From NCBI RefSeq assembly GCF_013315695.1, contig NZ_CP054353.1: a DNA stretch of 64,000 nucleotides; one strand, 5' to 3'. Positions within the stretch are counted from its first letter, which is position 1. Every line of letters starts with the position of its first letter. Source of the DNA: Escherichia coli (lineage in GTDB: Bacteria; Pseudomonadota; Gammaproteobacteria; Enterobacterales; Enterobacteriaceae). The notes under the pieces are model-generated. The model saw only the letters and a list, made by a program, of their open reading frames with translations. It was not told the origin of the DNA and did no database searches. The position numbers and the translations under genes are program-made. Positions 58,101-64,000 of the stretch are shown here, in pieces.

Positions 58101-58188
58101 GGTGAGGTGTCCGAGTGGCTGAAGGAGCACGCCTGGAAAGTGTGTATACGGCAACGTATCGGGGGTTCGAATCCCCCCCTCACCGCCA
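58101..58188 (+). tRNA. serW: tRNA-Ser (anticodon GGA)
   Basis: 88 nt GGTGAGGTGTCCGAGTGG...GGTTCGAATCCCCCCCTCACCGCCA with long variable arm; anticodon loop cctGGAaag. Confidence 0.92.
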
Positions 58189-60836: not shown

Positions 60837-61157
60837 TCAGGCTTTTTCTAGCGTACACAGCAATGGATGCTCATTCTCCCTCGCGTACTTGTTCACCATC
60901 GCCACTTTGGTTTCTGCAACCTCGGCGGTAAAGACTCCGCAAATGGCCTTCCCCTGGTAGTGAACAGCGAGCATCAATTGCGTTGCACGTTCTACATCAT
61001 AAGAAAAGAATTTTTGTAACACGTCAATAACAAACTCCATCGGAGTGTAATCATCATTGACTAATATCACTTTATACATAGATGGCGGTTTTAGCGCGTC
61101 GCGAACTTTTTCTTCCGCCAGTTGATCAAAGTCCAGCCAGTCGTTCGTTTTACCCAT
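60837..61157 (-). CDS. clpS: ClpA adaptor protein ClpS
   Basis: 106 aa [42 protein letters not shown]. Confidence 0.95.
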
Positions 61158-61779
61158 TGTCAGTTATCATCTTCGGTTACGGTTATCGGCAGAACGCCCT
61201 GCCGCTGACAAGAGCTTATTTGCCTGACCAATCTACTCCACATGATAGATAACTATCATTTATAACATCTCATTGATTAGTCTTTATTTTTCATTGTGTT
61301 ACAAATAACAGCTCTGTCAAAAACAGCGAAATTAACTACACCATTAACTACACCGTTTCACGAACAATATCGAACAACCACGAACAAAGATCAACACGCT
61401 TTAACCGTTATCATTTTCCGGCTATCCGTTATGAAGCTGGTGGATGTTCCCCGATATGGGGATCCCCACCTACCGGAATTTTTGCCAGGTTAAATGTTAA
61501 CCTCTGCCCTGTTAACATTTTTACCAAAAAGGTAGTTAACATTTTTTGCACGCAACCAGATGAATCATAAAGAAAAAATCAACAACAACGCTTCATCAGG
61601 CAGTTAACATGTTAACTACTACGAAACGGTAATTTTTTCTCTGCGTGAGAGGGGGCGCGGTGTCCAGCTTATTCGTTGTTCGTGGCTAACCACTCCCCCC
61701 CCATGCCGGATTTTTTTTCCGGTTAACTGTTAATCAGGCTGGTGGGTTTTACATACCCTTGATCACCGTAATGATGATC

Positions 61780-62000
61780 CAGATCTGCACATTTCCACCA
61801 ATGGTGGAAAAGCCCACAGCAGGCCGCCCAGCCTCCACCAATGGGGTAAAAGCATCAACCGTAACGAAAGTCGTTATGGTTGCCACCGATACCCCAAATT
61901 TGGGTATCACGAGTAAGCCCCAAAATCTGGGTGTTACTCTTACCACCCAAACTACGGGTAGTTTCCGTAGTTTCATGGTCGAGTTGCAGATCTGCAACTC
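61780..62000. promoter_or_regulatory. cluster of palindromic motifs (ccaccaatggtgg x2, acccaaatttgggt-like x3, tgcagatctgca)
   Basis: Several near-perfect 12-16 bp palindromes within 220 bp; the overlapping ORFs look non-coding. Confidence 0.35.
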
Positions 62001-62293
62001 CCCCATTAACCACAGGCGAATTTCCGCCTTCGGTCATTCCTTAATCATCTGCGTAATCATAATGATTATTCAGCAAGCGCAATTTTGCGCTTTGCTTAAA
62101 GTTCAGCGAGTTACCGCGCCGACTTCCTCAAATTGAGGTTTCCGAAAATATCAGCGGGTTAGCGATTAAGCTGATCATTAATTAAACTGCGAAAATTTCG
62201 TAGTTTGTGACTGTCTTTCAGGCAGCTTGTTAACAGTCCTCAGAAGCGAGGGATGTAGCCACCCATTTTTGGTCCGTCGGGAATATCAACCAG

Positions 62294-62575
62294 TTACCGC
62301 CGCAACCGCTCCGGCTTCTTCCAGTGGTACGTTATTTTCTCCTTCTCCCGATACATCTCCACGCGGCGACGGTAGGCCAGCAACTCAAGAACTCTGGTTC
62401 GTATGTTGCGCATATCCACGCCATTAAGTTCTATACCATCACGGCGCATCACCTCCGCAACAACACGCGCATAATTTTCAGCGGTCACGCTGTCCGGCTG
62501 CGTGGCCTGTTCGTCAACCTGCTGGCTGATTCCGGCAACGCGGCGGATTAATCCCAGTATTTCGGCTTCTGTCAT
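62294..62575 (-). CDS. hypothetical protein (93 aa, MTEAEILGLIRRVAGISQQVDEQ...)
   Basis: ATG-initiated ORF with protein-like composition; my hand count places the ATG one base from the ORF-track start. Confidence 0.45.
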   Translation of the reverse strand: MTEAEILGLIRRVAGISQQVDEQATQPDSVTAENYARVVAEVMRRDGIELNGVDMRNIRTRVLELLAYRRRVEMYREKEKITYHWKKPERLRR

Positions 62576-62610
62576 TGTGCCCCCATCGTTCTGATAGTCT
62601 GGTGTCGTCG

Positions 62611-63210
62611 GGTCCTTCCTGGAATTATGGCCCGTTACGGGGCGGCGACCTCGCGGTTTTTCGCTATTTATGAGATTTTTTGAGGGGGTGGTTGTTGTTT
62701 AATTGTTTGGTATATCTAATTGATAAGTAAGGTAAAAATAAAATAAATACAACAACCTTACGATGTATTTTGATGTCATTAATGTGAAAAAATTCAATGA
62801 TATCAAATGGTTTTGTAAAAACACATGGTTGTTGTATCGCGTATTTGATGGCGTAACAGAAAGTGATTTTTAACTTTACCGCTCTGTAACTACGGATTAT
62901 TCCATGCTGGCACGGAGAACGGCTACGGCATGACGCCACCCAGCCTATACAGCACAGTAAAGCCGATAAATTGTTAATCACGCGCAGCAATGCGTGTGAT
63001 TTTTGCACACTTCCGGTTAACGGGTACGATGTCCGGTTTTAGTGTCTGTTTTTTGCGCATGTCCGGTTCATAGAAAGCATGTTTTTATATTTTTCATATG
63101 GTTAACTTGCAGAGAAACCGGACATGGATCCCGGAAAATTTTCATAAATAGTGAAAACGCGCGAGGTCGCCGCCCCGTAACGGGTCCATATGCCGGAAAG
63201 GACCCGTAAA
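62611..63210. repeat. ~50-bp imperfect inverted repeats (25-bp perfect core cccgttacggggcggcgacctcgcg / cgcgaggtcgccgccccgtaacggg) flanking a ~500-bp AT-rich segment
   Basis: Left arm 62611-62660, right arm 63157-63210 in reverse complement; interior holds atgtccggtt repeats and no convincing ORF. Confidence 0.7.
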
Positions 63211-63232
63211 AAAAAGCCGGATTTCTCCGGCC
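63208..63232 (-). terminator. intrinsic terminator for the minus-strand operon (gccgga-tttct-ccggc plus T8 on minus strand)
   Basis: Hairpin immediately after the 137-aa gene stop, followed by a T-run on the transcribed strand. Confidence 0.65.
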
Positions 63233-63237
63233 TTGTC

Positions 63238-63651
63238 TCAGATGGTTTTCAGTATGCGATCGATGTCGCCGTCATCGCCCTGGTTTCTGCCATCGTACGC
63301 CATGCCAGCTGATACGGCTTGCGGGCTGTGCATGTCCATAAAGTTTTCAAAGGCTGCGGTAAGCTCTGGTGCAACCTTTGGGCGCTCCTGCTCTATGGTC
63401 ATGTTCAGGATTTCACGAGCATTATCGACGCTAATACATGGCACGTTTGCCATTGCACGTAACAGCGGCTGATAGTCGTTATGTTCATGAAGCGCCATAA
63501 TCGCATCAGCGCGCGGCTTGTCCTGTTCTTCCAGTTTGTTGAGTTGATATACGGCCTCGTAGGTTGATAAACCTCTGTCAGCCATTGCCCGCGCTTCTGC
63601 TTTAAATTTACTCGCCAGCGGTAGCGCCATGATGCTTTCATTCGTTGCCAT
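63238..63651 (-). CDS. hypothetical protein (137 aa) co-transcribed with the decoration-protein homolog
   Basis: ATG with AGGGGAAA RBS 12 bp after the upstream stop; terminator follows. Confidence 0.6.
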   Translation of the reverse strand: MATNESIMALPLASKFKAEARAMADRGLSTYEAVYQLNKLEEQDKPRADAIMALHEHNDYQPLLRAMANVPCISVDNAREILNMTIEQERPKVAPELTAAFENFMDMHSPQAVSAGMAYDGRNQGDDGDIDRILKTI

Positions 63652-63663
63652 CGTTTCCCCTGC

Positions 63664-64000
63664 TTATCGCGCCAGCGGCTGAACGGATACGCCAGAACCC
63701 GCAAAGGCGGCGCATTTTTTCGCGTCAGTGTCGGCGCTCTCAGGCCAGTTTACGGCGGCGATATTAAATATCCCCGTCTTGTAACACTGTGCTGATTTCT
63801 GCTTTGACGTGTCCACGGGGTACGAAGTCAGATAAACAGCCTTGCCAGATTCCTGACCATCCCACGGCTTAAACTCGCCATTGTCCGCCAGCATCAGCGG
63901 GGTAAATTCCTGAATAACGCCAGCATCAGCGGCAAAATGTACCAGCGTCGTGGATACCTGCTGACTGCCTGCAAATAACTCAATGTATGGAGTGTCCATA
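63664..64000 (-). CDS. phage head decoration protein, lambda gpD-like (5' end outside window)
   Basis: TPLMLADNGEFKPWDG...YKTGIFNIAAVNWPESADTDAKKCAAFAGSGVSV aligns with recalled lambda gpD (TPLMLD...WDG...[35 protein letters not shown]). Confidence 0.65.
   Translation of the reverse strand, partial: MDTPYIELFAGSQQVSTTLVHFAADAGVIQEFTPLMLADNGEFKPWDGQESGKAVYLTSYPVDTSKQKSAQCYKTGIFNIAAVNWPESADTDAKKCAAFAGSGVSVQPLAR

Follow-up and report, generated by a model that had tools for sequence, protein, structure and literature searches.

PICIs are phage satellites that spread virulence and anti-phage defence genes, and the packaging signal carried by such an island sets which phages spread them. The model Gram-negative PICI, EcCICFT073, possesses two functional cos sites (Fillol-Salom et al. 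2018, PMC6092414; Fillol-Salom et al. 2019, PMC6739421). The gene for RppA (c1503, 144 aa) lies between cos1 and cos2, and the protein binds the TerS of the helper phage and diverts it towards cos1, to the cosB of that site (PMC6739421). In Supplementary Figure S5 of the 2018 paper (PMC6092414), cos.1 is located upstream of rppA, and cos.2 is inverted and features ATGTCCGGTT repeats. Cloned cos2 alone renders a plasmid transducible, cos2 is dispensable for transfer of EcCICFT073 by lambda or phi80, and its deletion increased lambda-mediated transfer (Fillol-Salom et al., PMC6092414, PMC6739421), so that a second cos may be costly. The same authors found no phage cosB in the EcCICFT073 island (PMC6092414, PMC6739421), and the reason for the presence of two different cos sites in some PICIs was left open in the Rpp paper (PMC6739421). 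A subsequent analysis of PICI cos sites covers the cos-rpp site alone, with no mention of cos2 (Murialdo and Feiss 2022), and a search of later literature on cos1/cos2, or on satellites with two cos sites, yielded nothing beyond the 2018 and 2019 papers.

The locus described here is part of a 64-kb stretch of Escherichia coli chromosome, referred to below as the window, which is 99.9% identical to strain CEA601S. It belongs to an island of approx. 11 kb inserted between clpS and yljB/cspD, which extends beyond the right end of the window and was followed in the CEA601S locus (L001). The island encodes an integrase, an AlpA-like HTH regulator, an Icd-like protein, a DUF927 primase, SSB, PerC, a major capsid protein, a head decoration protein and small unknown proteins, and a 17-bp direct repeat is found at both of its ends, approx. 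11 kb apart. The attributes of a PICI are thus present, i.e. a size of ~10-15 kb, integrase, AlpA regulator, primase/replication module and att repeats, as is a capsid/decoration operon (c1499/c1500 in EcCICFT073) followed by two putative cos sites. The features surrounding the segment of interest are the following.

61328..61344, no strand assigned: candidate left att repeat, AAATTAACTACACCATT; the 17-mer recurs past the integrase (L001 26078)
62294..62575, minus strand: conserved island gene of 93 aa from the list of open reading frames, directly outside the putative left cos
63213..63234, minus strand: intrinsic terminator closing the capsid operon, immediately before the putative right cos
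63238..63651, minus strand: gene of 137 aa at the end of the capsid operon, putatively scaffold (Nu3)-like
63664..63999, minus strand: head decoration protein homologue, equivalent of c1500 (phrog_49, E 4e-27; RefSeq)

The 93-aa protein belongs to a family of unknown function (phrog_1561, E 3e-57), and its gene is syntenic with the gene adjoining cos2 in CFT073. The 137-aa protein matches phrog_1999 and also, in the head-protease family phrog_53, the C-terminal part (positions 494-567), the latter match suggesting a Nu3-like scaffold; some of its orthologues are named 'phage head-tail connector protein' in RefSeq. A Pfam search gave no match for either of these two neighbours. Short tandem or direct repeats accompany the 17-bp att-like repeat (window 61328-61396; L001 26078-26150), with ATTAACTACACC present twice, a CACGAACAAC-like sequence about three times, and similar motifs at the other island end; these may be integrase arm-type sites. 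Further towards the segment, overlapping ORFs of 54-125 aa occur in four frames and on both strands at 61749-62140, where RefSeq has just a 52-aa hypothetical protein (61855-62013) and no PHROG match was obtained. The island is not integrated at the tRNA-Ser(GGA) gene at 58101-58188, which lies 3 kb away.

Attention had been drawn to this segment by an original prediction, made from the sequence, of a perfect 25-bp inverted repeat with an imperfect extension around an AT-rich, repeat-rich interval without any convincing gene. The perfect repeat, CCCGTTACGGGGCGGCGACCTCGCG, is indeed present at 62631-62655 and 63160-63184. Its imperfect extension was also borne out, but the estimate of ~50 bp was too short, as the actual arms (62609-62680 and 63135-63206) are 72 nt each, 83% complementary and separated by 454 nt. 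The reported three copies of ATGTCCGGTT, two direct and one inverted, were found at 63029 (plus), 63059 (plus) and 63116 (minus). These are the only copies in the whole 64-kb window, in which shuffling predicts 0.23 by chance and 0 of 100 shuffles reached three, and all are confined to the segment between the arms. A second triplet that had gone unnoticed, GGTTGTTGT, is located at 62690 (plus), 62749 (minus) and 62827 (plus), with 6 occurrences in the 64-kb window compared to 0.73 expected. The interval is AT-rich as described, with 28% GC at 62700-62899 compared to ~54% in the flanks, and RefSeq likewise places no gene between the arms in the identical CEA601S locus. Two inter-arm ORFs of 114 aa (minus strand) and 55 aa (plus strand) were rejected as genes, as they overlap two kinds of element described below, cosB arrays and an rpp remnant, and they also lack RefSeq annotation in the nearly identical loci inspected. 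An Rfam scan of positions 61000-64000 at E<=1 returned one chance-level match, outside the segment.

By sequence comparison, each repeat arm is a lambda-type cohesive-end site with the order cosQ-cosN. Both arms can be aligned with lambda over its cosQ, its 12-nt cosN and the initial ~45 nt of its left end. The 12-nt cosN, GGGCGGCGACCT, is identical to the lambda cohesive end in both, and a cosQ sequence, CGGGTCCTT(T)CC(T/G)GG, aligns with lambda cosQ in both, at the spacing expected of a lambda-type site (approx. 17-30 nt upstream of cosN). Since the left arm is read from the plus strand and its right counterpart from the minus strand, the two predicted cos sites are convergent, with their cosB sides facing inward, and it is because there are two of them that the inverted repeats exist. 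The putative elements of the segment, including remnants of rpp between the two cosB regions, are arranged as follows.

62609..62680, plus strand: left cos arm, with cosQ-like CGGGTCCTTCCTGG (62609-62622) followed by cosN and the initial ~30 nt of cosB
62640..62651, plus strand: left cosN, GGGCGGCGACCT
62652..62840, plus strand: left cosB, N15/Monarch class, nearly identical to prophage cos regions
62690-62698, plus strand: R3 of the left cosB, GGTTGTTGT
62713-62725, minus strand: IHF-like site of the left cosB, TATCAATTAGATA
62749-62757, minus strand (inverted): R2 of the left cosB
62827-62835, plus strand: R1 of the left cosB
62874..62945, minus strand: remnant of the rpp 3'-end, 72 nt including the stop codon, 85% identical to CFT073 rppA (L004 3025-3096)
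62941..62960, plus strand: 20-nt copy of the rpp 3'-end in opposite orientation, forming a tail-to-tail junction with the 72-nt remnant
62979..63006, plus strand: terminator-like hairpin and T-run, 91% identical to L004 3099-3144
63029..63163, minus strand: right cosB of the PhiR12 class, the same as in EcCICFT073 cos.2
63029-63038 and 63059-63068, plus strand: inverted ATGTCCGGTT copies of the right cosB
63116-63125, minus strand (the cos strand): R3 of the right cosB, ATGTCCGGTT
63135..63206, minus strand: right cos arm, with outer half CGGGTCCTTTCCGG at 63193-63206
63164..63175, minus strand: right cosN, GGGCGGCGACCT on the minus strand

Of the features expected of a cosB, the left one has R3, an IHF-like site, inverted R2 and R1; the right one has three R sites, and no IHF-like site within one mismatch was found in it. 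Counted from the cohesive end, the R3 equivalent begins at bp 51 in both sites, where R3 is canonically located, given that the experimentally defined R3 of N15 spans bp 48-59 (Feiss et al. 2015, PMC4669245) and that lambda TerS contacts bp 55-63 (Murialdo and Feiss 2022). In the right cosB, R2 and R1 are both inverted relative to R3, unlike the lambda and Monarch layout. The window copy retains each of its six R sites intact.

The two cosB regions have distinct phage counterparts, and each predicted cos reproduces almost exactly the complete cos of a lambdoid prophage class of its own. The right cos corresponds to that of phage PhiR12_1 (GenBank PV340549): the two are nearly identical from cosN through the three ATGTCCGGTT sites, and homology stops just before the phage Nu1 gene. 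The left cos is 98.8% identical to the prophage cos region of EC31 (L007) and 92% identical to that of 2015C-3107 (L006), with homology to both stopping at the start codon of terS. Between the two phage classes, TerS is identical in its C-terminal half and unrelated in its N-terminal winged-helix domain. Packaging-specificity alleles classically show this combination of a common C-terminal half and an unrelated DNA-binding domain. In the left-cos class, the DNA-binding domain of TerS is 65% identical to that of N15 gp1. N15 carries GGTTGTTGTTTAAT at bp 50-63, which falls in its experimentally defined R3, and GGTTGTTGT equals this R3. Among 5426 complete E. coli genomes, the PhiR12-class cosB-terS junction is found in 1155 (21%) and the N15/Monarch-class junction in 246 (4.5%). 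The CEA601S genome itself gave a single match to a 1.8-kb query holding the cos pair and has no evident resident helper; as there is no further cos-pair match, mobilisation would need an incoming phage.

Comparison with EcCICFT073 shows extensive similarity, with 91-94% identity and the same order of capsid gene, decoration gene, 137-aa gene, cos, interior, inverted cos and 93-aa gene. The outer (cosQ) half of the left arm corresponds to the cosQ side of the published EcCICFT073 cos.2, and the outer half of the right arm matches the lambda cosQ and the cosQ side of cos.1. The ATGTCCGGTT-containing cosB of the window is that published for cos.2, and together with the hairpin at 62979..63006, which is homologous to the terminator following rppA in CFT073, it is 94% identical to CFT073. 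However, rppA and the Rpp-type cosB of cos.1 are missing from the window island, in which no rpp gene downstream of cos1 and no Rpp-specific cosB were found. Moreover, its cos.2-type cosB lies on the arm on the cos.1 side, next to the capsid operon, in opposite orientation, and the other arm bears a third type of cosB, of the N15/Monarch class, with its AT-rich GGTTGTTGT array. The possibility that the window locus is CFT073 with an inverted interior was rejected on the same grounds, i.e. absence of rppA and of the cos.1 cosB, and presence of the third cosB. By synteny and sequence, the island is accordingly assigned to the EcCICFT073 family, as a member without the Rpp mechanism, and its interior is composed of two cosB regions, arrays of sites for the terminase small subunit (TerS), placed tail to tail across a 72-nt rpp remnant.

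The segment very probably represents the DNA-packaging module of an EcCICFT073-family PICI, with two convergent cos sites directed at two helper classes. The mechanism can be inferred from the established packaging biology of lambda, 21 and N15. A helper phage would induce the island, which would be excised and then replicated to concatemers; helper TerS would bind the R sites of the cosB that matches its DNA-binding domain, TerL would nick the neighbouring cosN, and the island would enter helper capsids. Having two cos sites of different specificity, one island could be mobilised by two helper classes. By analogy with these phages, the terminase of either class would likely package the island without Rpp, and the rpp-less variant would be mobilised by plain cos mimicry, with no need for an Rpp adaptor. 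Packaging by the homologous cos1 and cos2 of EcCICFT073 has been shown experimentally (PMC6092414, PMC6739421). The same analogy would explain cos2 of EcCICFT073 as the cos for a helper class other than lambda and phi80, which fits its dispensability with these two phages. The convergent cos pair of this family was already known, but in the window each cos corresponds to a different phage class, and the segment is flipped in some strains (see below).

Four inter-cos architectures were seen in the island family.

CFT073-type: cos1, rppA and a PhiR12-type cos2
L008/L020-type: cos1, rpp and a Monarch-type second cos
L019-type: PhiR12-type phage cosB and phage terS start fused in frame to rpp
Window type: rpp-less, with two phage cos sites

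In the third of these, from E. coli 2012C-4221 (L019 1891-2100), an annotated ORF of 69 aa is preceded by the phage's own cosB and consists of the nine first codons of a PhiR12-type terS (VATQTEVAR) joined to the C-terminal half of rpp. This locus is a direct phage-to-island recombinant. The rpp-less variant was found in 11 copies at four att sites (clpS, yejO/tRNA-Pro, phoQ and thiM). Their interiors differ by 0-19 of 504 nt, as opposed to up to 158 of 1200 in the flanks, as would be expected if the module moves and is selected rather than drifting. Both cosN are exact in 9 of the 11 copies; the exceptions are L014, with one substitution in the flanking core, and L011, in which the left cosN is badly mutated (GGGCGTGGAACC) and the neighbouring 93-aa gene is frameshifted. 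The 93-aa gene is frameshifted in NCTC9112 too. A variant cosN, GGGCGTCGACCT, characterises the group formed by L015-L018 and L011, compared to GGGCGGCGACCT in the window group, and is present in both arms at once, pointing to a concerted change of the two sites.

The orientation of the segment was investigated with a synthetic query in which the interior was reverse-complemented, counting full-length single-piece matches. The check for both orientations in related strains proved positive: in the rpp-less form, 8 genomes have the window orientation and 3 the flipped interior (95.7-99.1% identity). The flipped copies are located at the clpS site, as in the window, at the yejO/tRNA-Pro site and at the phoQ site. 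For the rppA-bearing form, the CFT073 orientation was observed in 38 genomes, counted as those with the rppA-cosB-cos2 junction in that orientation, and the flipped one in 15; at two flipped rppA loci that were inspected, an identical RppA is annotated on the opposite strand. Once re-oriented, the rpp-less interiors form two tight groups with both orientations in each. In one, the window, L012 and L013 are separated from flipped L009 and L010 by 0-3 differences in 504 nt; in the other, flipped L011 shows 0-1 differences from L015-L018. The segment must therefore have flipped independently at least twice. Strain GF4 (NZ_CP172217.1) harbours two islands, L011 at phoQ and L017 at yejO, with identical interiors in opposite orientations; in the flanks, 45 of 1200 positions (3.75%) differ between the two, with differences beginning 13 and 23 nt outside the cores. 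CFT073 shows one orientation in four independent assemblies, so that flipping is not obviously rapid.

The 72-nt inverted cos arms evidently permit inversion of the interior, and this has been repeated within the family. Inversion is most simply explained by exchange inside the 25-bp identical core. This core is the sole long identical tract between the arms, and recombination and cutting followed by religation consequently predict the same junction. Most likely, inversion is a by-product, either of recombination or of cutting and re-joining at both cosN, and not a regulatory switch. A bolder view, which we regard as unlikely, is that the cos pair constitutes a terminase-driven invertible and exchangeable cassette: a double cut at cosN would free the 0.5-kb interior with identical 12-nt overhangs, and it could be re-ligated either way or into another island. 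If this were the case, the reaction would flip or swap packaging-specificity modules and homogenise the two cosN sequences, and helper-range switching in satellites would be a direct by-product of the packaging reaction.

Other readings of the segment deny it a packaging role. It might be a product of decay, that is, wreckage of a rearrangement without rpp, inefficiently packaged and with cos sites as mere relics; reduction of rpp to 72 nt with its odd tail-to-tail junction, the lesions in L011 and NCTC9112 noted above, and the lack of any other match to the cos-pair query in CEA601S would all be compatible with this. Such wreckage would hardly be encountered as one architecture in 11 copies at four att sites, with cosN exact in 9 copies, six intact R sites in the window and interiors far more conserved than the flanks, and we consider decay distinctly unlikely; the rpp-less variant looks maintained rather than decayed, as far as sequence conservation can tell. 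Alternatively, the second cos could be a decoy that titrates or misdirects the helper terminase and cuts helper yield without serving packaging. PICIs do interfere with helper packaging (Fillol-Salom et al., PMC6739421), and cos2 is dispensable for transfer of EcCICFT073 by lambda and phi80, but a plasmid with cloned cos2 alone is transducible, which marks cos2 as a working packaging site. A single site of ~200 bp per island copy would also be a weak sink, and packaging more simply explains an exact match to a common prophage class, making the decoy very unlikely.

The observed inversion raises the question of a programmed switch comparable to fimS or Hin, in which the repeats would be recombinase sites and flipping would regulate neighbouring genes or toggle rpp. 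Both orientations do exist in nature, in rpp-less and rppA-bearing forms and through at least two independent flips, and in flipped islands rppA is intact but antisense to the operon. Nevertheless, no invertase is found nearby, the only recombinase being the island integrase ~8 kb away, no promoter-like site exists inside the segment, the cos identity fully accounts for the repeats, and the single orientation in the four CFT073 assemblies speaks against fast switching. Of the proposed invertible segment, the occurrence of both orientations across strains therefore stands, and a dedicated invertase or regulatory switch, which appears very unlikely, does not. A promoter or operator region, also suggested at first, is not supported either: a promoter scan detected no sigma-70-like site between the arms, the segment lies downstream of the capsid operon terminator, and the repeats occupy the positions of terminase-binding R sites. 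The initial suggestion of a MITE-like element took inverted repeats around a short AT-rich non-coding interior for terminal repeats of a transposable sequence. The dispersed copies and target-site duplications of such an element are lacking, as the 1.8-kb stretch has one match in the source genome and no target-site duplication is visible flanking the arms; with arms that are lambda-type cos sites by sequence and a position fixed within one island family, this identity is refuted, and its probability is practically negligible. A packaging module with two helper specificities remains the best explanation of the segment.

This interpretation bears directly on why some PICIs have two cos sites. 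It provides a testable answer for cos2, as the intact cos of a very common E. coli prophage class represented in about one fifth of complete genomes, and PhiR12_1 is a cultivable representative of that class. The third module, of the N15/Monarch class, adds to this answer. The rpp-less variant suggests that the family can dispense with the Rpp adaptor by mimicking phage cos at both sites. The L019 fusion illustrates how modules are acquired, and recurrent inversion marks the module as structurally dynamic.

Beyond EcCICFT073, several known systems offer parallels. The satellites SaPIbov5, SaPIbov4 and P4 also carry the cos of their helper and depend on its terminase, and two putative cos sites have been reported for SaPIbov4 (Fillol-Salom et al., PMC6092414, PMC6739421). 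These are unrelated elements with unrelated helpers, however, and neither dual specificity nor inversion is described for them in the literature examined. The Monarch group of phages (PMC4669245) displays the same layout as the left cos, with N15 specificity and a complex cosB made up of R3, an IHF site, inverted R2 and R1. With the cos sites of lambda-like phages in general (PMC4669245), those predicted in the island share the order cosQ-cosN-cosB and the location of R3 at approx. bp 50-60 from the cohesive end. In PhiR12_1 and related E. coli prophages, cos is followed by Nu1/terS, whereas the island cos sites have no terS after them and face each other 0.5 kb apart.
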